Positions 4,405 to 45,042 of a stretch of 64,000 nt of DNA are shown piece by piece. This stretch comes from a virus. The DNA lies in IMG/VR virus record IMGVR_UViG_3300045988_184127. One strand, 5' to 3'. The notes beneath the pieces were generated by a model. The model was not told where the DNA came from and ran no database searches. It was given only the letters and a program-made list of their open reading frames with translations. The translations under genes were made by a program, and so were the position numbers. Numbering within the stretch: the first letter of the stretch is position 1; each line of letters starts with the position of its first letter.

Positions 4405-5802
4405 ATGGAACGAACGATTGACGCAGAGACGGAGGAGCTCTCAAAGCGGGAAAAGTATCGTGAACGGCGTGGTGAGGAGTATGATGTTGTCTCAAAAGTC
4501 GCTTTCCTTATTGGCGTGCCAGACTCTCACTGGAAGAGCCAGTATACGGGTTTGGATTCAGATATTTATGAGCAACTCAGCGATAACCGAGATGCTCGCA
4601 TCATCCGAAACCTCTGTGGCTTACGAACCGAGATAGAGCGCAACTTCAAGCACTTTTCAATGTTAATTCTGATGGAGCTCAAGAACCTGCATACGATTCC
4701 TCAGACACAAGGCATGGTTAATCAGCTTCGAAAAGATGGAATCGATATCATAAAAGCGAATCCAAAGCTGGAAGAATACCTGCCAAAAATCAACACTCTC
4801 TTACAGCAGCATATCGATGCTTGCAAGTCTCTGTTTCCAATCTGGGTCAACTGGGAGTTCGTGCGGCAGCTGTTTATCATCCCTGGCGGCAACAGCACAA
4901 AGAAGTCCAAGGAAGTCTTCGAGTATTATATGGAGAACCTCGAACGCTATCCGTATCGCATGTTCATTAACTGGCGCTGGAGCAAAGATGAGGAAGGAAA
5001 TCTTCTTTATAATGACGAAAAGTTTCTGAGCAGACTTTATCAGCAGAATGGTGAGGTATTCACCGGCTACTCCAATGTCAGAGGAGAAGGAAGAGAAACC
5101 AAGAGAAACATTTATGGATTTGTGGATGCCAGCGAACAGACGGTTGCTCTCGTTGACTGCGAAAACTGTGACCCGCTGAAACTGTGTGCGGCTCTTCAAA
5201 GTATGCAGCCGGAAACGCTTGCTAAAATCACAAAAATCATTTTGTACAATGATGTTAATGCTTCTTCTGCCTGGAATCTGCTTCAGAAACACACAAGGGC
5301 GGTTATTGAACATCAAATGTCAGAACGAGTCCTTACCGGGAAAAGCCTTGTGGATGTGATGCTGGTGGCGGGGTGCTGCAAGGAGCACTATGTCAACAAG
5401 GTGGACAGTTTCCTGCTGTTTTCATCGGATTCCGACTATTGGGGGCTTATCAGCTCGGTGTCCACTGCCAAATTTCTCGTGATGGTTGAGCAAAATAAAG
5501 TCAGCAGCGAAATTGTACAGAAAATGATTGACAGTGATATTCCCTTTTGCTATCTGGACCAGTTTTGCCAAGGTGGGCAATCTCACAAAATGAAGGTCGA
5601 TGCACTGCTCAGTGAATGCCAGCGCTTTGTCGGCAGGCACTTTGAAAGCTTCAATGTCAAGGAAATGATGAATGTAGCTTATCTACAAACCCGCATCGAG
5701 CTTTCGAAGGCTGAGGAAAAACAGTTTTATGAACGATATATCAAAACCATGCGCATCAAGATTTCAGCGGATGGTTCCGTAAATATTGAGTTCGGAAGCT
5801 GA
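4405..5802 (+). CDS. NYN (PIN-like) nuclease domain protein
   Basis: C-terminal region has LabA/NYN-like motifs VALVDCENCD ... LLFSSDSDYWGLI; start chosen at MERTIDAE with GGAGGGAGG RBS rather than track start 4036. Confidence 0.55.
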   Translation: MERTIDAETEELSKREKYRERRGEEYDVVSKVAFLIGVPDSHWKSQYTGLDSDIYEQLSDNRDARIIRNLCGLRTEIERNFKHFSMLILMELKNLHTIPQTQGMVNQLRKDGIDIIKANPKLEEYLPKINTLLQQHIDACKSLFPIWVNWEFVRQLFIIPGGNSTKKSKEVFEYYMENLERYPYRMFINWRWSKDEEGNLLYNDEKFLSRLYQQNGEVFTGYSNVRGEGRETKRNIYGFVDASEQTVALVDCENCDPLKLCAALQSMQPETLAKITKIILYNDVNASSAWNLLQKHTRAVIEHQMSERVLTGKSLVDVMLVAGCCKEHYVNKVDSFLLFSSDSDYWGLISSVSTAKFLVMVEQNKVSSEIVQKMIDSDIPFCYLDQFCQGGQSHKMKVDALLSECQRFVGRHFESFNVKEMMNVAYLQTRIELSKAEEKQFYERYIKTMRIKISADGSVNIEFGS

Positions 5803-7766: not shown

Positions 7767-9503
7767 TTAGAATCCAACGCTTGCAGGAAGATAGCTTTCA
7801 GCTTCCTGCAGGCGCTTTTTTGTATTTTCATGCATCTTCAAAAATGCAGGAAAAGCAGCTTTAAGAGCTTCGGTATCGTATTTTAGAGTTTCAGTATTTA
7901 TATGGGCGAGCAGAAAAGCGGAATACAGGTCACGCTGAACCACTTCTCCGCTGCTGAGATGTGCCATCCGTTCAGATAGTTTCTTCTTGGTATAGCTTTC
8001 ATCCGTATGGTCAAACTGAGAGGCTTTCGTCTCAAAAGTATCTACCTTGATAACATTGCCGCCGTTGTGGACAGCTTTGTTTGTAAGAATCGTGATAAAC
8101 TTCGCGGGAGCACAGCGACTTAAAGATTTACCGAAACGCTTTTTCGTATGTGCTCTACCGGTTTTTGGATTGACTTTCGTTTCCTTGCTGCGCTTCTGCA
8201 AGGCTTTGTAGTTCATATCTTCAGCCACGAACTCGTTGCCATGCTGCAGCAATTCGTTAGCAAGGATGTTGTGCTCCATCTTGCGGATATCCCCCAATCG
8301 GCGGTTTAAGTCACGCAGTTTTGCTTTCAAACGGAAATAGCGCTTGCTGCACTTCCAGTCGCGCTTTTGCTTTTGACCGTGCTTGCACTTCAATCGTTTT
8401 ATCGTGCCATCCGGATTATAATATTTCGGATTCGTGGCGCGACGGGAACGGTCCATTGCTCGCATGGTGCATGTAATTTCGTTCACAAGGCTTTTAGCTT
8501 GCGCTCTTGCCGATGGCGCGAGCACCCTCAAATCGCAGATATCATTGCTGCTGATGGCGAGCGTCTGTGTGCCAATATCAAGGCCCACACGGCCTTGATT
8601 GACGGGATACCTCATGACGCCGTTGCTATCGCATTTGACGGGAGGATACCCTTCCAAAACAAGTTGAGCATAATACTTCCACTTATTGCGAACCCATTTA
8701 CGGGTGATACGGCAATACTTTACGCCGCATTTGAGGGCTTCCTGCTGATATCTTCCCGTCTGAGTGTTAGGATTACGCACCACAACGGGAAATTCATGGT
8801 CGCCATACACTATGCGCAAAGAGCCTTCCCCAATAGACAGTTTGACTTTCGCAACGGCAGCGACGATATCGGCTTCCATTTGCGGTATTACAGCATCAGG
8901 AAGAATGACCTTTTTATCATCTTCAGGGTCAGGCTGTCCGTATGCTTTATAGTATCGCTGCTCAATAGCCTTTTGCTTTTTATTTTTTGCTGACCTTATA
9001 TTGCTCGTTGTGAGATTTGCCGGACGAAGCACAATGCCGGTGGCGTTATTCTTGCCAGAGATAGAAGTTACATCCTCAAGCTTTTTATAATGGACGGCCT
9101 TTCCTTTGCTGAAGAAAAAGCCTTCCCAAGCCGTCCAGACAGCAGATGCAACTTTCTGTGCTACATGAGAGTGGATAGCAAAGTGCTTTGCGTACGGCAC
9201 AACCAACTTATGAAAAGCATCTTCAGAAAAACGATATTCTTTAAGCATCTTTTCGCGCTGCTTAAAGAGTGTTTTTTGCTCATCGCTGTCGGGAGTTGCT
9301 TTTGCAATAGCTGCCATCAACTCACGATACTTGCGCGTCTTGCGCAATTGATGCCACATTTTTGTAGTCACACTCACAAGCTGATTGTAGATGACACCAC
9401 ACTTCTTGAACTCCTTATACAGATAGTCTTGCTCGTTGAGACTTATATCAAGAGGCAATGTCAATACAAATGATGGCGTGCTATTCTTGCTCCCGAAAGC
9501 CAT
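7767..9503 (-). CDS. tnpB: TnpB-like RNA-guided (OMEGA) RuvC nuclease, IS605 OrfB family
   Basis: RuvC-I VGLDIGTQTLAISS, RuvC-II FVAEDMNYKAL, RuvC-III-like RDLYSAFLLAHI; arginine/lysine-rich linker; unusually long (578 aa). Confidence 0.8.
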   Translation of the reverse strand: MAFGSKNSTPSFVLTLPLDISLNEQDYLYKEFKKCGVIYNQLVSVTTKMWHQLRKTRKYRELMAAIAKATPDSDEQKTLFKQREKMLKEYRFSEDAFHKLVVPYAKHFAIHSHVAQKVASAVWTAWEGFFFSKGKAVHYKKLEDVTSISGKNNATGIVLRPANLTTSNIRSAKNKKQKAIEQRYYKAYGQPDPEDDKKVILPDAVIPQMEADIVAAVAKVKLSIGEGSLRIVYGDHEFPVVVRNPNTQTGRYQQEALKCGVKYCRITRKWVRNKWKYYAQLVLEGYPPVKCDSNGVMRYPVNQGRVGLDIGTQTLAISSNDICDLRVLAPSARAQAKSLVNEITCTMRAMDRSRRATNPKYYNPDGTIKRLKCKHGQKQKRDWKCSKRYFRLKAKLRDLNRRLGDIRKMEHNILANELLQHGNEFVAEDMNYKALQKRSKETKVNPKTGRAHTKKRFGKSLSRCAPAKFITILTNKAVHNGGNVIKVDTFETKASQFDHTDESYTKKKLSERMAHLSSGEVVQRDLYSAFLLAHINTETLKYDTEALKAAFPAFLKMHENTKKRLQEAESYLPASVGF

Positions 9504-9507
9504 AAAG

Positions 9508-9909
9508 TTACCCTCCTCTCTTTTTTTGCTGTTCTACATAGTGTTGAATCGTAGCGGTAGACACATCTCCGGCAGTGCTTACAAAATAGCTGCGTGTCCA
9601 CATTTGCATAACCGTGTCAGGAAAAAGCTCTTGCTTGAGTATCTTGCCGGTGGTTCCTTTAATAATTTTCATGATTTCTGCAGCACTTAATGTAGGCGGA
9701 GCATTCACGAAAAGATGACAATGGTCTACATGACATTCCATTGCCAGTATCACAATGTCGTTTTGCTCACAAATTTGAGTTACAAGTTCCTTGAAACGAG
9801 CTTCAAACCCATCCACCAGAAATAATTTTCTTCGATAGCGTGGGCAAAACACAAAGTGATAATTTATCATAGAAACGGTTGCTTTTGTGCGCCTATAATC
9901 TTTTTTCAT
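9508..9909 (-). CDS. tnpA: IS200/IS605 family HUH (Y1) transposase TnpA
   Basis: HVDHCHLFV HuH motif and conserved catalytic Tyr region (MWTRSYFVST); 133 aa. Confidence 0.85.
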   Translation of the reverse strand: MKKDYRRTKATVSMINYHFVFCPRYRRKLFLVDGFEARFKELVTQICEQNDIVILAMECHVDHCHLFVNAPPTLSAAEIMKIIKGTTGKILKQELFPDTVMQMWTRSYFVSTAGDVSTATIQHYVEQQKKRGG

Positions 9910-23782: not shown

Positions 23783-23901
23783 CTCAAAAGCGCGGTTTTG
23801 TCCGCGCAGCTGCTCCAAAAGACAGCCTCCACGCGGCGAGCAGCGGGCAACGGGAGACAGTTCCGGCAAATTGTCTTTGAGACGGAAGGAGGAAGTGCCC
23901 T

Positions 23902-24291
23902 ATGCGAGTACAACAGGTTCCGAACTCACCCTATTTCATCCATTACGACGATGAGGGCTTTTGCTGTATATCCAAAAGCAGAGAAAGCCAAGAACCTATC
24001 CCGGAATCTGAGATGCAAGCGTTCCTTGATGCAGTAGCCAATGGCCTGCTTTATATCGAAAAGGAACGAAAGAGCAGATACCAGCGCATCGACGAGGCCG
24101 AAAAAGCAGCTTTTGCCAAAGGCGAAGCGAAAGGTAGGGAGGATGAGCTCCTTTCCACGGTTAGAGAACTGAAAGAAGTACAAGCGTCAAGAGCAGAGTA
24201 TGAGCGCAAGCTGCAATATGAAGTATATGCTCATCATACTTCGCACACCACGAAAACCGAGTGGGTTCGCCTTGGTCGTGGAGGATGGTGA
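23902..24291 (+). CDS. hypothetical protein
   Basis: 129 aa ORF with AGGAGGAAG RBS. Confidence 0.4.
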   Translation: MRVQQVPNSPYFIHYDDEGFCCISKSRESQEPIPESEMQAFLDAVANGLLYIEKERKSRYQRIDEAEKAAFAKGEAKGREDELLSTVRELKEVQASRAEYERKLQYEVYAHHTSHTTKTEWVRLGRGGW

Positions 24292-24557
24292 TTGACATGA
24301 TGGGAAGCATTCCGATTCCGAATACAAGATTTTATCTGACCAGCATCGATGGAAAAAAGTGGTTCGTAACAGAATACTACAGAACCGCACCATTTAACCC
24401 CGACAAAGAGACCTATGACTTGTACAAGGAGTTTGCGGAAGCATTCAGAAAGAACGAGATGGAGGAACAGGAGTTTCAGGAGGAGCTCAAAAAGGCCGTC
24501 AATAAAGCTTACGGAAACGGCTTATACGCCGGACGGCATAGTATTGATTTCGGCTGA
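24261..24557 (+). CDS. hypothetical protein
   Basis: 98 aa ORF overlapping previous stop; start uncertain. Confidence 0.3.
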   Translation: MGSPWSWRMVIDMMGSIPIPNTRFYLTSIDGKKWFVTEYYRTAPFNPDKETYDLYKEFAEAFRKNEMEEQEFQEELKKAVNKAYGNGLYAGRHSIDFG

Positions 24558-24603
24558 ACCGAACAAGAAAAGAAAAACGGCACAGGAAAGCGGCAGAACG
24601 AAT

Positions 24604-24849
24604 ATGAGCATAGCAAAAATCGAAACTGCATCAGGCGTAACGCTGCTTCTCAACGGCAAAACAGTTTTCGCCTCAGATGATACCTCATACTGGATGCAGG
24701 GGTCTAAAATCATCGACGAAAACGGTTGGATTTGTGGTAACGCCGAGACTATCCGAGATGCCCTGTGCATAGTCTTGGCAAAGTACGGCGGGCTAAAGGG
24801 AAACAGCGCAAGACAAACAAAACCAATAAAGGCGGTGAGAGCATGGTAG
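24604..24849 (+). CDS. small protein, tandem paralog 1 of 3
   Basis: MSIAKIETASGVTLLLNGKTVFASDDTSYW...; shares S/TGV-hydrophobic-NG-KT/S-W...G pattern with next two ORFs. Confidence 0.45.
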   Translation: MSIAKIETASGVTLLLNGKTVFASDDTSYWMQGSKIIDENGWICGNAETIRDALCIVLAKYGGLKGNSARQTKPIKAVRAW

Positions 24850-25034
24850 TATATACGAAATCAGGCGTGACGGTGAATTGCTGCAGTAATCTCTTCATTG
24901 CATCGGACGGCAAAACCTACAACCTCTGCGGCAGGATGCTGACATGCAGTGGCAAGGTCATTAGCTGCAACTGTCAGTCAAAAGAAGAAGCGCTGGGTAC
25001 GGTCGTGGGGCTGTACGGCGGTCGAAGATTCTAG
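24843..25034 (+). CDS. small protein, tandem paralog 2 of 3
   Basis: MVVYTKSGVTVNCCSNLFIASDGKTYNLCGRML...LYGGRRF. Confidence 0.45.
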   Translation: MVVYTKSGVTVNCCSNLFIASDGKTYNLCGRMLTCSGKVISCNCQSKEEALGTVVGLYGGRRF

Positions 25035-25045
25035 GGAGGTACAAT

Positions 25046-25255
25046 ATGCAAACGGTCATGACGAACAGCGGCGTCGAGCTGCGTGTTGAGAGCAACATCA
25101 TTTACACAACCGATTCGAAGGCATTCTGGCGCAGCGGGAACATGCTGGTCGGAAACGGTACGGTCATCAGCTACCAGTGCCGCTCGATGGATGAGGCGGT
25201 CGATATGGTTGCCGCCTTGTACAATGGCAGAAAAACCGAAGCAGCGCAAGCATAA
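25046..25255 (+). CDS. small protein, tandem paralog 3 of 3
   Basis: MQTVMTNSGVELRVESNIIYTTDSKAFWRSGNMLVGNG...ALYNGRK. Confidence 0.45.
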   Translation: MQTVMTNSGVELRVESNIIYTTDSKAFWRSGNMLVGNGTVISYQCRSMDEAVDMVAALYNGRKTEAAQA

Positions 25256-25274
25256 CCATCCTGCAAAAATATAT

Positions 25275-25310
25275 GCCGTTCACCTTTTTGGGTGGACGGC
25301 TTTTTGTTTT
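25275..25310 (+). terminator. rho-independent terminator
   Basis: gccgttcacctttttgggtggacggc + tttttgtttt. Confidence 0.6.
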
Positions 25311-25343
25311 GTGAATACAGCGATTCAGTGGCGAAGCGAGCCG

Positions 25344-25398
25344 ATTTTACCAGCAGTTTGATATTCTGCGGTATGATTTCCAGCGATTTGATATTCTA
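25344..25398 (+). promoter_or_regulatory. two direct copies of TTTGATATTCT(G/A)CGG operator-like motif (third copy at ~32118)
   Basis: ttttaccagcagTTTGATATTCTGCGGtatgatttccagcgaTTTGATATTCTACGG directly upstream of P3; ttttaccagtacTTTGATATTTTGTGG at 32116. Confidence 0.5.
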
Positions 25399-25405
25399 CG
25401 GGCAG

Positions 25406-25433
25406 TTGCACAGCTGTGCGAATTGAATACAAT
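25406..25433 (+). promoter_or_regulatory. conserved-module promoter P3
   Basis: TTGCAC-16 nt (agCTGTGCGAATTGaa)-TACAAT. Confidence 0.55.
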
Positions 25434-25778
25434 GGGAATTGGAGAACAAAAAGAGCGATGCAAGGATGTATTTGCTATAAATATGGCGGCTGTTTTTTGT
25501 ATTCATGAAACAACACGAAATTAAACGAAAGGCGAAGAGGATACAAGAAAAGACGAATGAAATCCGGCTGATGCGGATAAAACTTGCGCCGAGTAGTTTA
25601 AAGTCCGGACAATGGGACAGCTAAAGTGGTAGAATGATACTAGGAATATCTAAAATCAGACTTAATCGGAAAAACAAAAAAACATGAGTGAATGATTAGT
25701 TGCTAAAAAAGTAACTGCTCGCTTATATACCCGACCAAAAGAAATGACCCAAATCTGTTTAGGAAGGATAGACACAAA

Positions 25779-27377
25779 ATGGCACGAAGGAAAGCAAACG
25801 ACTTGGAAAATCAGATGTCGCTCATGGACATGATGGCATCGGAAAGCCCCGAATACACCGAGGAAGGTCCGGAAGAACTCTTGGACCCCGGCGAGGACAT
25901 GGGGGACAGTGAAGGGCAGACGGATAAGCCATTCAAACTCGTGGCGAACAAGACCACGAAGGGAAAGGCGAGCATCTCCACGCAGGCGCTGAGTGTTGTG
26001 AAGGCGATATATGCTGATACGGTCGAAACGAATTGGGAAGAGTTGTTTGACGGGTTCGACAGACTCTATGCTATCACTTTTTCGTCCGGAATCGAGTTCG
26101 TGAATAAGGTCATCAACAAGTTCTCGTATGCGGAAGTCGTGTTCGGATGCGAGAAAATCATCGCCACCGACATCGCTGCCATCATGTCGGTGCAAATCGA
26201 CAGCGTGCAGCAGCTCGCTAAGTCTAAGTCGGCAGGAAACCTTGCGAACCGCCTCGATGACGGGTCCTTACAACTGTATGTATCGCGGGACACGAAATCG
26301 CACGAGAAAATCTTCATCTTGGAGAGCGCTGACCGTAAGCGGGTCCGAGTCATCACTGGCAGTGCGAATATGTCGGCATCGGCGTTTTGCGGCATCCAGC
26401 GAGAGAATATCGTTTGCTTCGATGACGAGGCGGCATTTTCGCATTATAAGGCTCTGTTCGAGACCTTCAAGGAGACCTGCTCCGACAACGTTTCGTATAA
26501 GGCAGTCGTGAACACCATGAATCAGGAAGATTATCTGAAAGAGAACATCAAAGAAGTGCCCGTCTTCCAATCCATTGAAAAGCAGAAGCTTATCTTTTTG
26601 GAACAGGCGCAACCTGAGGACGAGGTAGAATACGAGATAGTCGCCGATGTCAAGAAGATGCAGGAGCTCGTCAAGCCGATTATGCCTAAGATGCCGGTAC
26701 AGGCGAATCGTATTGTGGTGGCAGCGGAACCGATGCGCGTTTTTACAAAAAGGTATACAGAAGTTCGTCGTGTGGCGGCTGAGGCAGTTAAGCAGCTTCC
26801 GAAACTGCATATCGACTATGATGCCGGGACCATGACCTTCAACGACGAGAATATCGACCTCAATCCGAATCTCAGCGAGGTGGCAAAGAACATCAAGAGC
26901 ATCCAAAAGTTCTTCTCAGGCATGGACTACTTTTACGGCGATGTCGAGCAAGCTAAAAAAGACTACTTTAAGTACATGACCTGGTATCTGGCTACTCCGT
27001 TCATGGCATATCTACGGTATTTTGCATCGAGGAACAACTACGATACCAAGCTGTTCCCGATGTATGGCGTTATATACGGCGACTCAAATGGCGGCAAGAC
27101 GACCTTTATCAAGTTCCTTGTCAAACTCATGTGCGGGGAGACCGTAAAGATGAACACAACGGAGGATTTTACAGCCACAAGAATCGATGGTCTCAAACGA
27201 GTTTGCGAGGGACTGCCGCTGAATATCGACGACCTCGCCAAGACCGTTCCTTCCGAGTTGAGAATAAAGCAATCGTGCTTGTCCTTTGCAACATCGATAC
27301 CAACAAAAATCATTTCTTTTTACCTCCGGCGTTTTATTTTACAGTGCTGCTTAGAGCCACACCTCTTTGCTATGTAA
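25779..27377 (+). CDS. PLD-like (HKD motif) nuclease domain + C-terminal P-loop NTPase protein, apparently C-terminally truncated
   Basis: SHEKIFILESADRKRVRVITGSANMS resembles HxK..D..GSxN phospholipase-D nuclease motif; YGDSNGGKTTFIKFL Walker A and LPLNIDDL Walker B ~90 aa before stop (SF3/VirE-like geometry but too short). Confidence 0.45.
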   Translation: MARRKANDLENQMSLMDMMASESPEYTEEGPEELLDPGEDMGDSEGQTDKPFKLVANKTTKGKASISTQALSVVKAIYADTVETNWEELFDGFDRLYAITFSSGIEFVNKVINKFSYAEVVFGCEKIIATDIAAIMSVQIDSVQQLAKSKSAGNLANRLDDGSLQLYVSRDTKSHEKIFILESADRKRVRVITGSANMSASAFCGIQRENIVCFDDEAAFSHYKALFETFKETCSDNVSYKAVVNTMNQEDYLKENIKEVPVFQSIEKQKLIFLEQAQPEDEVEYEIVADVKKMQELVKPIMPKMPVQANRIVVAAEPMRVFTKRYTEVRRVAAEAVKQLPKLHIDYDAGTMTFNDENIDLNPNLSEVAKNIKSIQKFFSGMDYFYGDVEQAKKDYFKYMTWYLATPFMAYLRYFASRNNYDTKLFPMYGVIYGDSNGGKTTFIKFLVKLMCGETVKMNTTEDFTATRIDGLKRVCEGLPLNIDDLAKTVPSELRIKQSCLSFATSIPTKIISFYLRRFILQCCLEPHLFAM

Positions 27378-27379
27378 CC

Positions 27380-27571
27380 TCGTTCTATATAAACCGTCTG
27401 GCGGTATCTAACTGATTAACACTAAAAACAAAGAGCCGTGGTTGGAGCCTTTCCGAAACCGTCTTGCGGTAGGAGGTTTAAACCAATCCACAGCACCTTG
27501 TCTATTGTAGCATTTTGTCCTTGGAGAGGGACTTTAATAACTACTACTTTATAATACGAGGAGTATCTTGC
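27380..27571 (+). ncRNA. candidate omega-RNA region for IscB
   Basis: ~190-nt non-coding stretch immediately upstream of iscB containing imperfect repeats accgtctggcggta / accgtcttgcggta; omega-RNAs are known to lie 5-prime of iscB. Confidence 0.3.
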
Positions 27572-28924
27572 ATGAGCACTTGCGTTTGTGTTCTCAGCAA
27601 CAGTGGTGAACGCTTAATGCCTACCATCCGTCTTGGCAAGGTACGCCGACTCTTGAAAGACGGAAAAGCAAAAATCGTTAAGCATCATCCTTTTACTATT
27701 CAACTGCTGTATGACAGCAAAACGAACACACAACCCATCGAAATCTGCGAAGACGTGGGCTACAACTACATCGGCATCAGCGTAAAAAGCGAATCCCACG
27801 AATATGTGTCTGCCCAGTATGATACATTACAGGATGAGAAAGCCTGCCACGACAGTTGTCGTAAGTTGCGCCGAACCCGCAGAAATAGACTGCGCTACCG
27901 TAAACCGCGCTTCGATAACCGCAAGCGCGGCGAAGGTTGGCTTGCTCCTTCTTTGAGGCATAAGAAAGAACTCAATGTCAACGTTGTCAAGATGTATTGT
28001 GCAGTAATGCCCATTACTCATGCAACGGTTGAGGTTGGTTCTTTTGATACGATGCTTGTAAAAGCAATTCAGGAGGGAAAAGCCATTCCTGAGGGAGCAG
28101 ACTACCAGAAAGGTCCCCGCTACAACTTGGCAACTTCGCGTGAGGCAGTGTTCTACCGTGATAATTACACCTGCCAAGTTTGTGGACGCAAAGTTGCGGA
28201 TGGTGCCATTTTACATATGCACCACATGTTCTACTGGAAAGGAAGACACGGCGACAGCCTGAACGAACTTCTAACGGTATGCGAAAAGTGCCATACACCT
28301 GCCAATCACCAAAAAAGCGGTAAGCTTTATGGCTTCGGAGAAAATGTAAAGTTTGCCGACCTTTCCGGTGCGGCTTTTATGAACACCGTTAGGTGGCAAA
28401 TTGTCAATGAACTCTACGCTGCTTTTGGAAAAGATTTTGTCACCATCACTTATGGCGCAATGACAAAAGAAAAGCGCATTGCGCTTCAACTTGAGAAAAC
28501 CCACAGCAATGATGCGTATGCAATGGGCGAGTTTCATCCAAACTGCCGCTGTACGTTTGAACATTATGAAAAGGTAAGGCGTAATAATCGCATCCTTGAA
28601 AAGTTTTATGATTCTCGCTACATTGACATTCGTACAGGAGAAATAGCTACTGGAAAAGAACTCTTCAACGGTAGAATTAACCGTAACCACAAAAAGGATT
28701 CGGAAAATTTGCACAGATACCGTGGCAAGAGGACATACGCAGGGCATCGCGCTCTATTACGCAAAAAGGTAAACCTTAATCCGGGTGATTTAGTCTCTCT
28801 CAACGGAGAAGTTCTCGTTGTGCATAGCACTCATACCAATAAAAAGGGTGCTGTAAATGTAGAATTCAAAACACCCGGAAAAGCGGTCAAAAATCTGCAA
28901 GCCTTAAAAAACTTAAAATTGTAA
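27572..28924 (+). CDS. iscB: IscB OMEGA RNA-guided nuclease (PLMP-RuvC-bridge helix-HNH-RuvC-TID)
   Basis: N-terminal SGERLMPTIRLGKVRRLLKDGKAKIVKHHPFTIQL (PLMP domain), ICEDVGYNYIGISV (RuvC-I), RKLRRTRRNRLRYRKPRFDNRKRGEGWLAPS (Arg-rich bridge helix), CQVCG...LHMHHM...CEKCH (HNH), HSNDAYAMG (RuvC-III). Confidence 0.8.
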   Translation: MSTCVCVLSNSGERLMPTIRLGKVRRLLKDGKAKIVKHHPFTIQLLYDSKTNTQPIEICEDVGYNYIGISVKSESHEYVSAQYDTLQDEKACHDSCRKLRRTRRNRLRYRKPRFDNRKRGEGWLAPSLRHKKELNVNVVKMYCAVMPITHATVEVGSFDTMLVKAIQEGKAIPEGADYQKGPRYNLATSREAVFYRDNYTCQVCGRKVADGAILHMHHMFYWKGRHGDSLNELLTVCEKCHTPANHQKSGKLYGFGENVKFADLSGAAFMNTVRWQIVNELYAAFGKDFVTITYGAMTKEKRIALQLEKTHSNDAYAMGEFHPNCRCTFEHYEKVRRNNRILEKFYDSRYIDIRTGEIATGKELFNGRINRNHKKDSENLHRYRGKRTYAGHRALLRKKVNLNPGDLVSLNGEVLVVHSTHTNKKGAVNVEFKTPGKAVKNLQALKNLKL

Positions 28925-29095
28925 AAGCAGCAGATTCCATGCATTCTGCATGGGAAAAAATATCTTAATCATTTAAAGAAAGGAGTAGCAAGGTATTTGT
29001 GCTAACTGAGTACACTTCAAATTGCCTCTTGGTTAGCGCATTCCTCACCGCCTAAGTCGCAAGCGACTATAGACGGTGTACCCTGCGCACATAAT

Positions 29096-29737
29096 TTGAT
29101 GAAATGGATTGTGAAGCAAACCAAATCGAAAGGATATGAGTTCACCTTCGATATCGTGAAAGGCAAGGCCGTTATCGGGCAGGCACACTATATCCCGAAA
29201 TTGCTACGGCAGGGTTATGGCATCCGGCTGAATGATTCCAAGTTCCTGCTGCAATACATGCCAGCTGCTGACGCAAGGGCGTACATGCGCGGCATCAACA
29301 CGAAAGATATTCTGAGACACCCTTTTGCTATCCGTGAGAACAACTGCACGGTAGGCGAGATTTCCGTCATCCATACAAAAACCGGATTCCTCCAAGGATA
29401 CAATTCTATCGCCATGCAGCTGTATGGCGAGGAATACCAGAGCTACAAAATTGGTTTTGGAAAAGAAGGAGTATGCTGTCCCGTATTTCTTGGCGGACAG
29501 CAAATCGCCCAAATCAATAAGAGCGCGGTGGTCAAGGACAATCTGGATGAATACCTGATTTACGCGGTCAATGAAATGGCTCTGCTGCCGTCCGTTATGT
29601 TCGCCATTTACATTGACGGGATATACTACGCAAACCGAGGCGTGTATGTGGATGACGCAACGACTATCAACTGCGAATACAGCTTGAACGAGGAAGTCCT
29701 GTCCCACTACGACCCGAATTTTGTCAAAGGACTATGA
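29096..29737 (+). CDS. hypothetical protein
   Basis: 213 aa ORF. Confidence 0.4.
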   Translation: MMKWIVKQTKSKGYEFTFDIVKGKAVIGQAHYIPKLLRQGYGIRLNDSKFLLQYMPAADARAYMRGINTKDILRHPFAIRENNCTVGEISVIHTKTGFLQGYNSIAMQLYGEEYQSYKIGFGKEGVCCPVFLGGQQIAQINKSAVVKDNLDEYLIYAVNEMALLPSVMFAIYIDGIYYANRGVYVDDATTINCEYSLNEEVLSHYDPNFVKGL

Positions 29738-29770
29738 CTCCGATAACTGGTATTCACAGACAATATCATG

Positions 29771-29798
29771 TTGCGAAACTGTGCGAATCGCAGACAAT
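29771..29798 (+). promoter_or_regulatory. conserved-module promoter P4
   Basis: TTGCGA-16 nt (aaCTGTGCGAATCGca)-GACAAT then TAAAAG. Confidence 0.55.
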
Positions 29799-29837
29799 TA
29801 AAAGTGAATGAATTACAAAAGCTACAGAGGATAAACA

Positions 29838-30434
29838 ATGAGCTATGAACCCATTATCACACCGGGCAGGAATTTCTTTCTTGTCTCGACGGAGTACAAA
29901 GAGAGCTGCTCTGCCTGGTGCCGCAAGCAAATTAGAGCGACACTGAGGACCTGTCAGGGACGAGTCATCATCATTGATGCAACGGGCGAGTACGCGGACT
30001 TGGCGCTTGAACATGACAGATTGATTCGAGAGAAAATCCCGTCCATCATTTATCGGTATAAGCTGGTGGACGGGAAACCGTATATTGCTCATGTCATTGA
30101 AGTTGATACGGAAGCAAATGAAGCACCGCACCTGATTGTATACGATATCAGCCGGACCATAATCACCAGCTGGAAGGTCGGCGTAGAGGCAATTGATAAA
30201 ATCCTGCAATCCTATGCCGTGATGCGGGACAGTGAAATCGCGTGGTTGTATGTTCCGCTGGACTTATATACCAATGTCAAGCCTGAAACCGAATCCTGGA
30301 ACATTCTGGAACGAACTATCAAGGGTAATGAAGGCAAGCTCATGACAGTACTGACGACTCGCAAATTCACCATTGGGATGGTCCAGCGCTGTTTGCATAT
30401 GACAAAAAATAAACTTTTGGAGGATAGCAAATGA
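29838..30434 (+). CDS. hypothetical protein
   Basis: 198 aa ORF 40 nt downstream of P4. Confidence 0.4.
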   Translation: MSYEPIITPGRNFFLVSTEYKESCSAWCRKQIRATLRTCQGRVIIIDATGEYADLALEHDRLIREKIPSIIYRYKLVDGKPYIAHVIEVDTEANEAPHLIVYDISRTIITSWKVGVEAIDKILQSYAVMRDSEIAWLYVPLDLYTNVKPETESWNILERTIKGNEGKLMTVLTTRKFTIGMVQRCLHMTKNKLLEDSK

Positions 30435-31318
30435 CCAATGAACAGCTGAGAATCGCATTGACGGCGAATGCCGTTACCAAACAAACCCGAAACCATTTTG
30501 GATTCAGTGACCCGTGTGGAAAAACGCTAGAAGAATACAACAAGTCCGCGATGCTGTGCTGCATGACAGCGGCGCAGAGAATGAACACGCCGGGTTTTGA
30601 GCGTGTTTTGGCTGCGCAGATTTTTCCCTGCTTTACCATTGGCTGCTGGAATCAGACGAAGACGGTCTATGATTTTGACTACGAGTTTCAGAAAATGCTG
30701 ATGGATACGGATGACGTGGCAATTCATCAGGATATCCTGCAGCGACTCCCGGTTCGTGATTTCTTTATCCCGGTGTATGACAGCTACGACTACAACGGTA
30801 TGTTCGTGCATGTGGAATTCGACGAAAAAGAGAAAACCACAGCTTTCGGTATCGTTCTTGTCGGCCCCACTAAGGGCAGCCACGATGATTTCACGTTCCT
30901 GACTCTGCCTGCCTGGGCCAAAGAAAACCAGAGTTTGACGGAAGCAACCCGGAGTACGAAAGAATACCTGGAAAAGGCAGCAGGGCAGCGGCAAGTAAAT
31001 GGTATCAGCGTACCGGCTGTGATGGAAGCAGTTCCTTCGGTCTTTGACGGCGGCACACCTTATGTCCGGCTGGCAATCCTGTGCGCCAACTATCTTGCCA
31101 GCAAGAACCCAGATGTCCGCCTTGAAACTTCCAAAAAGCGTGACCGCCCGGTATTCGTGTTTCAGGGAAAGGCACAGCGAATCAACGTCAAGACATATAC
31201 CGTTGGTGAGAATGCGGCCAAAGAATACAAAAAGAATGGGGAAGGCAAAACCCCCCGCTGGCGGCATTACTGGTGCGGCAATGGCCGGGAACGCCGGGAA
31301 TGCAAGTTTATTTACTGA
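30431..31318 (+). CDS. hypothetical protein
   Basis: 295 aa ORF, 4-nt overlap with upstream gene. Confidence 0.4.
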   Translation: MTNEQLRIALTANAVTKQTRNHFGFSDPCGKTLEEYNKSAMLCCMTAAQRMNTPGFERVLAAQIFPCFTIGCWNQTKTVYDFDYEFQKMLMDTDDVAIHQDILQRLPVRDFFIPVYDSYDYNGMFVHVEFDEKEKTTAFGIVLVGPTKGSHDDFTFLTLPAWAKENQSLTEATRSTKEYLEKAAGQRQVNGISVPAVMEAVPSVFDGGTPYVRLAILCANYLASKNPDVRLETSKKRDRPVFVFQGKAQRINVKTYTVGENAAKEYKKNGEGKTPRWRHYWCGNGRERRECKFIY

Positions 31319-31336
31319 TGGCGGTGAGGGTGAATC

Positions 31337-32044
31337 ATGGCTCCCCATACTTATCAGGACCCGATTGGGTTCTATGAATGGTTCGATGACCTTCCTTATG
31401 CTATCCAGGATAGTATTCTGAAACACCTGCCGCATATGGAAGGCGAGGAATGGCTCATTGTCATTATCCTTGCAGCTCTTCTTCTGATGATTCTGGTTTC
31501 AGCGTATCTGGGCTTTGCAAGACATAATGTCAAAAAAACGAGTGAACGACTCAACGCTTTGAAAGAGCTGAACAACACGACTGAATTCATGCCGGTCGAG
31601 GCGCAGTACCGCTACTATCTACGTTCTGATACGAAGCTGGAATACGAGGAGTTCTCGCTCCCGAAATTCTTCCGCCGCGAAGTGAGAGAAAACTTTAAGC
31701 TGTTCAACACTCTTCTTGGCAATGCTCGGGCAAACACGGTATTGTATGAAACATACGGCCGCGAAATCCAGGAACTCCCGGATTGGACAGAATCGGATGA
31801 CGATTGCGGGCGGCATATCCCGTTCTTTCTCTACCACAACATCGAGAAAGAGTTGTACGATGAAACTGTCCTGGACTGCCCTGTAACGAGCCCTGAGTTT
31901 GTCTGTACGAAAAGCTATCTGCCCAAAGATGCCAAAGAGCCGATTGAGACGGAAGAAACCTATACACTGGAGGAACTGGAAGAGTACATACGCCGCTTGA
32001 AGGTTGCAGCCGATGTCAAGAAGAACAGCCAGAACGCAGGCTGA
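31337..32044 (+). CDS. hypothetical membrane-anchored protein
   Basis: 235 aa, one TM segment (LIVIILAALLLMILVSAYLGF). Confidence 0.4.
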   Translation: MAPHTYQDPIGFYEWFDDLPYAIQDSILKHLPHMEGEEWLIVIILAALLLMILVSAYLGFARHNVKKTSERLNALKELNNTTEFMPVEAQYRYYLRSDTKLEYEEFSLPKFFRREVRENFKLFNTLLGNARANTVLYETYGREIQELPDWTESDDDCGRHIPFFLYHNIEKELYDETVLDCPVTSPEFVCTKSYLPKDAKEPIETEETYTLEELEEYIRRLKVAADVKKNSQNAG

Positions 32045-42434: not shown

Positions 42435-43121
42435 ATGATTGAGCAGAAAGACAGTGAAATTTTGGAGCTCGCGGGGTTTGCAGACCGGAACAGAAAGGCC
42501 AGGGAGGTTCATTCAGAGCCTATTTTCGTACAGGTGAACAGCAAGCTGGCAGCCTACACGATACCAGGAATGCGTTCGGAAGGAACGACCTATGATGTTC
42601 CGACTTACTCGGCACTGAAAGGTGCAATGGATTCCATCTACAAACATGTCGGTATGGAAGCGATTCCGACGGCGGTGTACATTCACTCTCCTATAAAAAA
42701 GACACGTATCCTGCTGCGAAATATTGAGAACATCGAAGGAATGCGCTCCCGCGAATGCTTAACGGATGTTTGCTACACGGTCGTTGTACGAATCGTAAGA
42801 ATGGATAACATGGCTTTAGAAAGCGACCTCACAGTGCAGTACAGGAATTTCTTAGAGTATGCTTCCGACAGCTGTGGGATGGGATATCCGTATCTTGGCG
42901 TGATGGAAACACCCATGTATTTCCATCCTGTAACGGAAGCTGAAATCCTTCCGACGCTGCCCATCACATCTGATTTGTGCAACATGCCTCTGACGCCGGA
43001 TTATACGAACAAATTTGAACCGGATTTGGTTTGCAGGCATCTTCGCATCGAGAATGGTGTCATCGATTTTACGAAGGGGGAGTATTTTCGCTGCTATGGA
43101 TATTCTGAATGCGCTGGTTAA
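42435..43121 (+). CDS. cas5c: Cas5c (Cas5d) type I-C Cascade subunit / pre-crRNA endoribonuclease
   Basis: FVQVNSKLAAYTIPGMRSEGTTYDVPTYSALKGAMDSIY matches Cas5d N-terminal signature (..yAlF..P......Y.vPTysALKG..esIY); 228 aa; overlaps cas8c start. Confidence 0.8.
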   Translation: MIEQKDSEILELAGFADRNRKAREVHSEPIFVQVNSKLAAYTIPGMRSEGTTYDVPTYSALKGAMDSIYKHVGMEAIPTAVYIHSPIKKTRILLRNIENIEGMRSRECLTDVCYTVVVRIVRMDNMALESDLTVQYRNFLEYASDSCGMGYPYLGVMETPMYFHPVTEAEILPTLPITSDLCNMPLTPDYTNKFEPDLVCRHLRIENGVIDFTKGEYFRCYGYSECAG

Positions 43122-45042
43122 GCACTATGATGCGATGGCAGCAGCTGGAAATGCAACGCCTTTCGGCTGGACACACAAGTTTGCTCAATATGCCGTCGAA
43201 CTAAACGATGACGGAGAAATCGATAGGATTTTCGCTCTCGGTGATTTATCCGATAAAAAGAACAAAGGCGAGGAATTCAAGATGCCAACACGCAGGCCAC
43301 GGTCTGGCAAGCTGCCGATTCCGTATGTGTTCTGTGATGATGCGGAACATCTTCTCGGCAAAGTCGGTGAAGCGAGCAATCTTGTTCGATACACTATGAT
43401 GCGCGACGCAGTCTTTATGCTGCGTGACCTGTTGGGACATTCTAAAGCCTTAGATGTCGTCTACAAGTTCTACGAAACGTGGGACCCAGAAAAGGCGCTT
43501 GACAATAAATGTGTCAGCGACGTAATGGAGGCGAAAGGCCAGGAAAAGAAAACCTTTATCCTGTTCTACAATGGCGTTCCAGTTTTTGATGATGAGACAT
43601 TTCGCAAAAGCTATGCGGCGATTGTCAATAAATATGGGGAAATGCCGATTGATACACTCAAGGGCGGTGAAATTGCTCTGTTGCCGGAACCTATCAAGAT
43701 TCGAAGCATGATAAGCGGCAATATCGGGTTTAAGGCTCGCTTGTTTCGAGCCATCACGGCATGGGGAAACAAAAAGAATGGCCCTGTCACAAACACTCTT
43801 TTGTCCAACAACAAAGCAAACACCGAGTATTTCGGACGTCAGCAGGGCAACGCCATCCCCATCACAATGCAAGATGAACATAAGATTTACGAAGCGGCTA
43901 CAGATTTGCTCGGCTCCAAACATCGGTTTCCGGTTCCGGCCACTTCACAGTCTCTTTATTCAAAGAATCAAATTATCTGGTCGGATGATATGCCAACAAA
44001 GCTGGAAGACGCGGTCATTGACCTATGCTGTTGCCGCAGTGATAAAGCTAAAACTATCTCTCAGGCAAATGAATCAGGTTCTGAAACCACTATCAGAATC
44101 CTTGAAAAAACAAAACTCTATCAGGGACGAATCACGGTTCTTTCGGACATTGAAAAGAACTTAGTCGTCAACGTCTGGAATCTTGATATGAATAATAAGG
44201 GATGTTCTGCATCCAGCTTTACGCAGATGACGCTTGACGAGCTGCTTGGAAACTTTGCCAAGCATTACACTGACATGGAAATTGACCGAAGCCAGACTTG
44301 CCGAGATGCGGATGGAACCAGCCGAGATTTTGCAAGAGCCATCAACATCTACAACTCACTTTTCGCCAAAAACAGTGATGGAAGCACGAGTTCTTTCAAC
44401 AACGCTCTTTGGAAACAACTGAGTATCAGCATTTATTCCGGAACAAAGTATCCGGAGCAAGTCCTTTCCCTGGCACTGCTTCGGTCCTGCCGTTTGCTTC
44501 AGCAAAATAAGAAAGGCAAAGAAAATCGCATCACGGCGTCTTTGGCCGGTATCACAAAAGCGTTCTTAATTCGCAATTACGGAGAGAATATGACGATGGG
44601 ACTCAACTCAAACAACACCAGCCCTGCTTATATCACAGGACGAATCTTCGCACATATGGAAAGTGCGCAGAGAAAGATTGACCCCAACAACCAAACCACT
44701 TACGCTAAACGGTTCTTTGAGCGAGTTATGATGAACCCGGCCAAAACCATGCCGGAACTTCACAAGAGTTTCCTTCTTTTGAAGAACAAGGCTAAAGCAA
44801 ATGGCATGAGAGGTCTTTATAATTCCAGCGACAAGAAAATTATGGCTCTTATCGATATGCTGGATGGCAACTATCCCGACCATCTATCCGAAAAGCAAAA
44901 AGGTGAATATCTCGTCGGATACTATCAGCAGCGAAGCGCAAACATCAAGGATGCCGAGGAGAAGAAAAACCGGAAAGCCGCCAAAATTGAAACTAATAAT
45001 ACGGATACTGCGACAACCGTTGCAACACAAAAGGAGAAGTAA
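43096..45042 (+). CDS. cas8c: Cas8c (Csd1) type I-C Cascade large subunit
   Basis: N-terminus MDILNALVKHYDAMAAAG...GWTHKF...VELNDDGEI...MPTRRPRSGKLPIPYVFCDDAEHLLG matches Csd1 family pattern (M.L.aL..yYdrl...vP.R..RTsg..p.flcD...Y.LG); ~648 aa; position between cas5c and cas7c. Confidence 0.8.
   Translation: MDILNALVKHYDAMAAAGNATPFGWTHKFAQYAVELNDDGEIDRIFALGDLSDKKNKGEEFKMPTRRPRSGKLPIPYVFCDDAEHLLGKVGEASNLVRYTMMRDAVFMLRDLLGHSKALDVVYKFYETWDPEKALDNKCVSDVMEAKGQEKKTFILFYNGVPVFDDETFRKSYAAIVNKYGEMPIDTLKGGEIALLPEPIKIRSMISGNIGFKARLFRAITAWGNKKNGPVTNTLLSNNKANTEYFGRQQGNAIPITMQDEHKIYEAATDLLGSKHRFPVPATSQSLYSKNQIIWSDDMPTKLEDAVIDLCCCRSDKAKTISQANESGSETTIRILEKTKLYQGRITVLSDIEKNLVVNVWNLDMNNKGCSASSFTQMTLDELLGNFAKHYTDMEIDRSQTCRDADGTSRDFARAINIYNSLFAKNSDGSTSSFNNALWKQLSISIYSGTKYPEQVLSLALLRSCRLLQQNKKGKENRITASLAGITKAFLIRNYGENMTMGLNSNNTSPAYITGRIFAHMESAQRKIDPNNQTTYAKRFFERVMMNPAKTMPELHKSFLLLKNKAKANGMRGLYNSSDKKIMALIDMLDGNYPDHLSEKQKGEYLVGYYQQRSANIKDAEEKKNRKAAKIETNNTDTATTVATQKEK

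Follow-up and report, generated by a model that had tools for sequence, protein, structure and literature searches.

The iscB gene described here is, in all probability, the orphaned and probably inactive remnant of a non-autonomous IscB-ωRNA (OMEGA) element that occupies one site in a widespread gut-bacterial island. The structure of the locus and its homologies were observed directly in the window, which is the whole 64-kb stretch of DNA analysed, and the features are collected in Table 1. The stretch directly upstream of iscB is the left end of an IS110-family insertion sequence on the opposite strand, and iscB itself carries a frameshift near its 3' end.

Table 1. Features of the iscB locus and its flanks, in window coordinates.
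Feature	Position	Strand	Evidence
5' 489 codons of a PLD (NgoFVII-like) + P-loop NTPase gene	25779-27245	+	Pfam RE_NgoFVII, PLDc_2; homologues
Joint, 9-bp microhomology GCCAAGACC	27237-27245	.	Window compared with L006 (intact PLD) and L075 (intact IS110)
IS110-family DEDD transposase, first ~25 codons (MIFVGIDVAKDKHDCFILNSEGTVLA…)	27246-27313	-	Pfam; eight full copies
Complete 250-nt left non-coding end of IS110	27314-27563	-	Homology; terminus at 27563
iscB Shine-Dalgarno (SD) GAGGAG	27558-27563	+	Alignment of window, L092/L094/L011 and IS110
iscB ORF, 450 aa	27572-28924	+	Pfam, NCBIfam and PDB matches; alignment with 465-aa relatives
1-nt deletion (-1 frameshift) in iscB	28877-28878	+	DNA alignment with L011, L012, L003, L013; protein alignment
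Out-of-frame tail of the ancestral iscB ORF, then stop-side element end	28925-29098	+	Homology to IscB elements
212-aa island gene flanking the IscB element	29099-29737	+	Used to find ancestral and empty sites

The ORF encodes a genuine IscB

The iscB ORF product matched the Pfam families RRXRR (155.9 bits, E 1.2e-45) and HNH (28.2 bits, E 2e-6) and scored 267.9 bits against the NCBIfam equivalog guided_IscB (NF040563; cut-off 175). Solved IscB chains of the PDB, OgeuIscB among them, matched the 450-aa protein at 1e-33 to 1e-40. In an alignment with nine relatives the catalytic residues D61 (RuvC-I), E154 (RuvC-II) and H311/D314 (RuvC-III) are invariant, as are the HNH residues H215/H217/H218 and N245/H246 across the 10 sequences, and the catalytic residues line up with the matching positions of the solved IscB chain 11hr_A. 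The gene therefore encodes a genuine IscB with a RuvC domain split by the bridge helix and the HNH insertion, as the original prediction had proposed. The accompanying claim that this IscB stands alone is likewise upheld, as no tnpA adjoins the window iscB. The architecture is that of OgeuIscB (PDB 7XHT, 7UTN), with PLMP/RuvC-I, Arg-rich bridge helix, HNH and RuvC-II/III in common.

More than 5000 homologues make this an abundant clade. A contig scan for relatives gave three loci, of which L003 and L004 are two IscB copies on one contig, L004 being the second and 5'-truncated; the third, L005, was set aside as irrelevant. All 67 substitutions specific to the window iscB lie within 27589-28513, and 54 are synonymous against 13 that are non-synonymous. 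Intact catalytic residues together with mostly synonymous substitutions indicate that iscB was under selection until recently.

The iscB 3' end and the stop-side end of the element

As a result of the 1-nt deletion the last 13 IscB residues are aberrant and the stop comes 15 codons early (450 vs 465 aa); eight near-invariant C-terminal positions, one of them a Trp, are lost. The window copy thus lacks the full-length C-terminal (TAM-interacting) region, and PDB sequence and profile searches gave no alignment of the C-terminal region to solved IscB structures. The indel at ~28877 is specific to the window when compared with ten ancestral-type copies, and a locus from a second sample (L010) encodes the identical 450-aa frameshifted product.

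IscB-ωRNA (OMEGA) elements belong to the IS200/IS605 superfamily, and most are without tnpA. The ancestral iscB stop corresponds to 28966-28968, and a subterminal hairpin, AGTCGCAAGCGACT, lies at 29054-29067 in the stop-side end of the element. Homology to IscB elements that sit in unrelated surroundings (L003, L011 and L012) continues up to 29093-29107 and is divergent past there, which places the stop-side boundary at ~29095-29099; comparison with empty sites puts it at L092 7001/7002, equal to window ~29099/29100. A look for IS200/605-like ends on both sides of iscB had been suggested. The stop-side end, with its hairpin, is present, but the ωRNA-side end is missing, homology to IscB elements beginning only at 27559. 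The pair of ends of an IS200/IS605-type non-autonomous element is therefore incomplete in the window.

No cognate ωRNA was detected in the window

IscB requires ωRNA both as its guide and as a structural partner. The original prediction placed this RNA in the ~190-nt stretch 27380-27571, between the upstream gene and iscB. Searches were performed with the Rfam model HEARO (RF02033), which is the IscB ωRNA (10.1101/2023.03.14.532601), and with a clade-specific nhmmer profile accompanied by positive controls. The Rfam search of 26800-29500 and of the whole 64-kb window returned no HEARO and nothing at E<=1. The clade-specific profile reached at most 6.6 bits anywhere in the 64-kb window, as compared to 321-467 bits on control loci left out of its building. 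The covariance model, negative for the window, was positive for close relatives: HEARO scored 88.7 bits at L003 (IscB 85% aa identity), 88.6 bits at L013/L017 (86%), 56 bits (E 7e-9) at L011 (92%) and 59.8 bits (E 6e-10) in the ancestral-type island of L091/L092. In every one of these relatives, all with an intact 5' flank, HEARO finishes 40-55 nt before iscB; the ancestral ωRNA occupies L092 5090-5418, with the HEARO sequence at 5106-5418. No same-strand cognate HEARO-type ωRNA lies directly upstream of the window iscB.

Because IscB depends on ωRNA, the window copy can serve as an RNA-guided nuclease only if another part of the genome provides a compatible ωRNA, and such an RNA may be encoded in trans beyond the 64 kb analysed. 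A working nuclease would draw its ωRNA from another element of the same clade, be translated from an SD derived from IS110 and tolerate the C-terminal change. The conserved catalytic residues, the ratio of 54 synonymous substitutions to 13, the strong SD that is kept, the more than 5000 homologues of the clade and the capacity of two copies to share a contig (L003/L004) are compatible with such a nuclease. It is nevertheless unlikely, given that HEARO is undetected in the 64 kb, that the upstream side of iscB yielded no site in a promoter and terminator scan of 27000-29300, which gave fewer sites overall than shuffled sequence did, and that the eight near-invariant C-terminal positions are lost. 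Copies elsewhere in the island family are also decaying: iscB is split in L098 and its 5' end is replaced in L012. An orphaned and probably inactive gene is the preferred reading.

The upstream stretch is the left end of an IS110 element

The region 27237-27563 is an IS110-family left end on the strand opposite to iscB. A minus-strand ORF from 27313, with the start MIFVGIDVAKDKHDCF, matched positions 1-29 of Pfam DEDD_Tnp_IS110 (E 2.6e-5). By megablast, 24500-31500 had IS110 matches only among phages and plasmids. The two public matches, both to 27243-27561, are Faecalibacterium phage Roos, in which orf25 codes for an IS110 transposase without being annotated as such (Pfam 2e-44), and a 1563-bp circular Monoglobus record that encodes solely an IS110 transposase. 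When viral contigs were scanned with the Roos protein, 72 loci came up, with many IS110 copies at contig ends. Eight full-length copies sit in eight different, unrelated flanks, and all start …TCCTCGTATTATAAAG and finish …TAGTCTTTC. Their 5' ends are 98.5-99.7% identical to window 27563→27237, so that the stretch claimed as an ωRNA locus is in fact minus-strand IS110 sequence. The common ends of the eight copies set the left IS110 terminus at window position 27563. A locus from another metagenome, L008, is the same as the window through 27563 exactly and then diverges.

The full-length ORF of L075 scored 217.8 bits against NCBIfam transpos_IS110 (cut-off 140). A complete gene with DEDD and Tnp_20 domains is absent from the window, which keeps ~25 codons; both domains are found in L075, Roos orf25 and the Monoglobus circle.

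At the iscB side, IS110 homology stops at 27561-27564 and IscB-element homology begins at 27559. Since the DNA homology to IscB elements extends no further, 13 nt of original sequence are left 5' of the ATG. The iscB ATG lies 8 nt past GAGGAG. The ancestral SD is AAAGGAG and the window SD is now made of the IS110 terminus, the junction having changed from ancestral …GAAAGGAGTACCTTGCATG to …ACGAGGAGTATCTTGCATG in the window. This junction sequence is consistent with genuine IS110 integration into the iscB SD. Among the distinct left-end flanks of this IS110 clade, 24/36 show an opposite-strand ORF of at least 40 codons whose ATG lies 5-14 nt away from the IS end, as compared to 5.9% at control positions. 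The IS110 end at iscB follows the pattern of its clade, with the start codon of an opposite-strand gene nearby.

IS110-group bridge RNAs are encoded in the long left non-coding end (PMC11208160). In an alignment of 21 left ends, RNAalifold gave a bridge-RNA-like covarying structure at ~27343-27544 on the IS110 sense (minus) strand: a two-domain fold of 46 pairs, 17 of them changed on both sides, with 96.6% of cells paired. None of 500 shuffles reached the observed values, and slid controls had at most 7 such pairs. The identical helices read on the plus strand were 90.0% paired, vs 96.6% on the IS110 sense strand. The covariation on the IS110 sense strand assigns the structured RNA in the presumed ωRNA interval to IS110, and the long left non-coding end kept in the window includes this conserved structured RNA. 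The expectation of a structured RNA upstream of iscB was right, but the RNA is that of IS110 and is encoded on the minus strand. A search for structured RNA can succeed through an RNA that has nothing to do with iscB and is encoded on the opposite strand; the gap 5' of an iscB is not safely assumed to be ωRNA.

The putative loops of the IS110 RNA include short TAAACCTC matches to the left target flanks (4-9/11), and the putative loops AGTTAG and ACGAGG have short matches to the element's own ends. These loop/target and loop/donor resemblances are suggestive.

The PLD-NTPase gene ends at a joint with IS110

The upstream gene had been described as a truncated gene with PLD and P-loop motifs, and both points hold: Pfam gives PLD hits, and comparison with homologues, which it matches over codons 1-489 only, confirms the truncation. 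The gene breaks off just past Walker B (…PLNIDDLAKT), and ORF 25779-27377 gains its final 43 codons by reading on into the IS110 fragment on its antisense strand. Over aa 1-487 the gene product shares 97-98% identity with 659 homologues, whose lengths vary between 519 and 802 aa. Intact forms do not share the endpoint of the window gene; they extend to 721-767 aa, with more than 230 further residues after …NIDDLAKT. The missing 3' part had been supposed to lie downstream of 28924 and was not found there: tblastn with full-length P0026/P0089 matched only 25779-27245 in the whole window. A downstream 213-aa ORF was considered as the missing 3' end and ruled out by tblastn with full-length PLD; this ORF is also unrelated to the gene that comes next after the PLD gene in L006.

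The 9-bp sequence at the joint occurs in both the PLD gene and the IS110 transposase gene in their intact forms, and the identical PLD/IS110 joint is also present in L007/L009, L010 and L008. Judged from these alignments, the truncation of the PLD gene is a deletion/replacement joint that runs from PLD codon 489 to IS110 transposase codon ~26.

Ancestral and empty sites in the island

A protein identical to the 212-aa gene product is encoded in 704 blocks of the collection. Ten long contigs (200-285 kb) were read, and all ten (10/10) have the order VWA–PLD-NTPase–90-aa ORF–HEARO–iscB–212–198–AcrVA2-like–235–202–65–DEAD helicase. In these contigs the PLD-NTPase is 721 aa long, but is split or truncated in 2/10; iscB encodes 465 aa in eight, 468 aa in one and is split in one. 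Window 25131-27245 corresponds to L092 1920-4032, and the window from 27559 onward to L092 from 5460 onward. From these alignments, L092 4033-5459 (1427 bp) is replaced by 313 bp of IS110 in the window.

Empty sites were also recovered. In L101-L103 the order is PLD–Mor(155)–212, without IscB, and an intact 155-aa Mor/CD3324-like gene overlaps the 212-aa gene. The IscB element measures 1896 bp (L092 5106-7001) and lies inside the Mor-like gene, where it replaces the last 217 bp of the gene; its left boundary in L092 is the first nucleotide of the HEARO scaffold. At ancestral loci the Mor-like gene is 0.4 kb, and iscB 0.7 kb, downstream of an intact 721-aa PLD-NTPase gene. By this comparison the IscB element was at no time inside the PLD gene.

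The arrangement in the window could in principle be a chimeric assembly across an IS110 repeat, in which case the true iscB would be preceded by a full IS110 and an ωRNA, and the PLD/IS110 joint would be flanked by something else. The 318-bp IS110 fragment is a repeat, at which an assembler could link the wrong flanks; many IS110 copies occur at the ends of contigs, L008 is identical through 27563 and then continues into GC-rich chromosomal genes, and the two assemblies that support the window share one pipeline and possibly come from related samples. A chimera is nonetheless quite improbable. The PLD-IS110-iscB join was assembled in two samples, and to the right of iscB the same island resumes in the expected order at ~100% identity, as a single deletion predicts. 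In its right flank L008 has a typical IS110 target, the start codon being 7-10 nt away from the IS end, and L008 is thus no less likely than the window to be chimeric. A chimera would still leave iscB separated from its ωRNA by IS110.

The original prediction, in which an intact IscB-ωRNA element with a plus-strand ωRNA in 27380-27571 split the 3' end of the PLD-NTPase gene, is hardly credible: the gap has the position and size of an ωRNA locus and the upstream gene is truncated, but the gap is 98.5-99.7% identical to an opposite-strand IS110 left end, HEARO is detected in relatives and undetected in the window, IscB-element homology begins no earlier than 27559, the window is without a PLD 3' fragment, and at ancestral loci iscB lies 0.7 kb beyond an undamaged PLD gene, within a different, Mor-like gene.

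Proposed history of the locus

Because no intermediate with a full-length IS110 was found, we infer the order of events, as we do the loss of IscB activity. The 1.9-kb element, composed of ωRNA scaffold, iscB and stop-side end, would first have entered the 155-aa Mor-like gene, with the guide segment of its ωRNA taken from flanking Mor sequence. A bridge-RNA-guided IS110 would then have integrated antisense into the Shine-Dalgarno of the iscB copy, the usual type of target for its clade. Next, an illegitimate joint at GCCAAGACC may have connected IS110 codon ~26 with PLD codon 489, and would have removed the remaining IS110, the ωRNA, the Mor remnant and the last 232 PLD codons. This joint could have arisen by simple deletion or by homology-facilitated illegitimate recombination anchored in iscB near 28515. 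A 1-nt deletion would afterwards have frameshifted the iscB 3' end.

A single event of homology-facilitated illegitimate recombination may account for the replacement, as may an IS110 insertion followed by a separate deletion. The predicted junction of the intermediate is …TTTTACGAAAGGA/AAGACTAACTATTA…. Exact and gapped patterns, run on viral and metagenome contigs, found neither the intermediate (full IS110 between HEARO and iscB) nor an IS110/iscB junction.

From ~28515 on, window and L094 show no difference for kilobases (100% identity), as compared to ~93% before that point. The confinement of the window-specific substitutions to the segment that ends at 28513, followed by complete identity to L094, points to a recombination breakpoint inside iscB. 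The switch from ~93% to 100% identity within iscB (~28515), with a 9-bp joint on the opposite side, resembles the products of homology-facilitated illegitimate recombination. This mechanism is suggested by the sequence pattern, and a simple intrachromosomal deletion fits the left joint equally. The window retains an iscB ORF that has no ωRNA in cis, takes its ribosome-binding site from IS110 and is altered at the C-terminus.

Relation to known mobile elements

The locus is a known kind of element, orphaned and degenerating, and as such is a well-explained ordinary copy. Like other IscB-ωRNA elements, the ancestral locus has HEARO directly upstream of iscB, a guide from flanking DNA and no tnpA. 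The window copy differs from these elements in lacking the ωRNA and the ωRNA-side end, in having a foreign SD and in its frameshifted C-terminus (450 vs 465 aa).

The IS110 clade can be compared in the same way to IS110/IS621 elements (Durrant et al. 2024, PMC11208160). Its long left non-coding end (250 nt) consists of a covarying two-domain RNA fold followed by the N-terminus of the DEDD transposase. Full copies have a right end of ~140 nt, precise ends and a probable TC core, whereas the window keeps the left end and ~25 codons only. The bridge RNA is putative, as judged from its covarying fold. In the window, the clade's terminus itself recreates a GAGGAG/GAGGTG SD, a point on which it differs from IS900/IS901/IS902. 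Elements of the IS900/IS901/IS902 type reportedly insert between the ribosome-binding site and the start codon of host genes. The insertion at iscB fits that pattern, while host phylum and IS subgroup differ. An IS900 'hed' ORF is mentioned in PMC8141618.

A rather unlikely, more general possibility is that the bridge RNA of this IS110 clade is programmed for the SD and spacer of genes, with insertion antisense to the gene and rebuilding of the SD, so that IS110 uncouples ωRNA from iscB and seeds deletions. One RNA-guided mobile element would then disable another. A more remote variant is that an IscB without ωRNA is kept for a guide-independent or trans-guided role.

The locus documents the death of an OMEGA element, as empty, occupied and degraded sites were all recovered. 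Three RNA-guided mobile systems, namely IscB, a TnpB-like gene and IS110, interact within one gut-bacterial island. For nuclease mining, the useful copies are ancestral ones, such as L092 5090-6870 (ωRNA and 465-aa IscB), rather than the window copy.

Insertion-site preference of the IS110 clade

Flanking sequences of the related IS110 loci (L019-L090) were used to assess where these elements insert. In 24 of 36 distinct left-end flanks, an ATG lies 5-14 nt from the IS end and starts a reading frame of 40 codons or more; control positions show this in 5.9% of cases (binomial p = 2e-21). Insertions of this clade thus lie immediately 5' of start codons, in an orientation antisense to the downstream gene, a pattern reminiscent of the targeting by IS900-type elements. 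A Shine-Dalgarno sequence is rebuilt by the IS110 terminus (…ACGAGGAG / …ACGAGGTG), as seen at window 27558-27572 and at 7780-7800 of the JGI contig L008. The predicted IS110 RNA displays a loop, TAAACCTC, similar to the left target flank.

The joint between the PLD-NTPase gene and IS110 is common to the window and L008 (7786-11921). Past the IS110 terminus, L008 carries GC-rich chromosomal genes encoding a 419-aa membrane protein, a ferredoxin-like protein and a Crp-like protein. Either this right flank is a genuine alternative arrangement, or it arose by mis-assembly across a repeat.

Insertion, recombination and damage of the IscB element

Every occupied island lacks 217 bp of the Mor-like gene, with the IscB element in their place, so the gene is not merely interrupted (L092 5106-7001, occupied, compared to L102 6958-7174, without IscB). 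Because an IS200/605-type insertion would not by itself cause such a loss, a deletion occurred alongside or after insertion. The 5' two-thirds of the window's iscB (27589-28515) differs from the ancestral-type islands by ~7%, the changes being largely synonymous; 3' of 28515 the identity to the ancestral-type sequence changes suddenly to 100%. This transition is a recombination breakpoint within the gene. Damage is also present in other copies of this IscB clade. L012 (4200-5580) is without HEARO, the ωRNA family, and has unrelated DNA in place of its first iscB codons, which creates a fused ORF of 661 aa; iscB in L098 (5473-6870) is in two pieces of 221 and 196 aa; and the IscB match in L004 begins only at residue 109.

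Variation elsewhere in the islands

The 3' half of the PLD-NTPase gene (window 25779-27245) is highly polymorphic among ~650 near-identical homologues, which range from 519 to 802 aa. Variants drawn from proteins P0001-P0120 and from L101, a relative without IscB, include frameshift splits (554 + 167 aa in L101, 5001-7165), in-frame deletions (672 and 648 aa compared to ~745), fusions (P0089) and premature stops between residues 541 and 554. Within the island family, this gene seems to decay or rearrange time and again.

A segment of 1.28 kb made up of small ORFs (window 23848-25130), with an HDV-like ribozyme at its left edge, is carried by the window, L010 and L101. The segment is missing from L092-L094 and L102, where homology skips from window 23847 to 25131, and no Rfam match to the ribozyme was reported in L091 or L092.

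Additional features of the window
Feature	Position	Strand	Evidence
HDV-like ribozyme	23809-23878	+	Rfam HDV-F-prausnitzii, 58 bits (threshold 44)
TnpB-like protein, 578 aa	7767-9503	-	NCBIfam guided_TnpB, 67.6 bits (cut-off 100), E 1e-18
IS200-like Y1 transposase, adjoining the TnpB-like gene	9508-9909	-	Pfam, 3e-32
AcrVA2-like gene	30431-31318	+	Precomputed Pfam PF26125 on identical protein of L007
Type I-C Cas8c/Csd1 gene	43015-45042	+	Pfam, 6.9e-68

TnpB-like and CRISPR-associated genes

The protein originally predicted as an IS605 TnpB at 7767 adjoins the transposase gene and has a sub-threshold guided_TnpB match. This was the protein's sole match, with none in Pfam or PDB, and its sequence looks like that of a divergent, unusually long TnpB-like protein. 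In L091 (1-1471), an ancestral-type island, a 578-aa ORF and an adjoining Y1 transposase gene lie immediately upstream of the PLD gene. These are probably the same pair as in the window, in which case their placement would imply that the pair is mobile.

A direct Pfam scan of the AcrVA2-like gene at E ≤ 0.001 gave no match. Since the window carries both this gene and Cas8c/Csd1, anti-CRISPR-like and CRISPR genes lie less than 15 kb apart.
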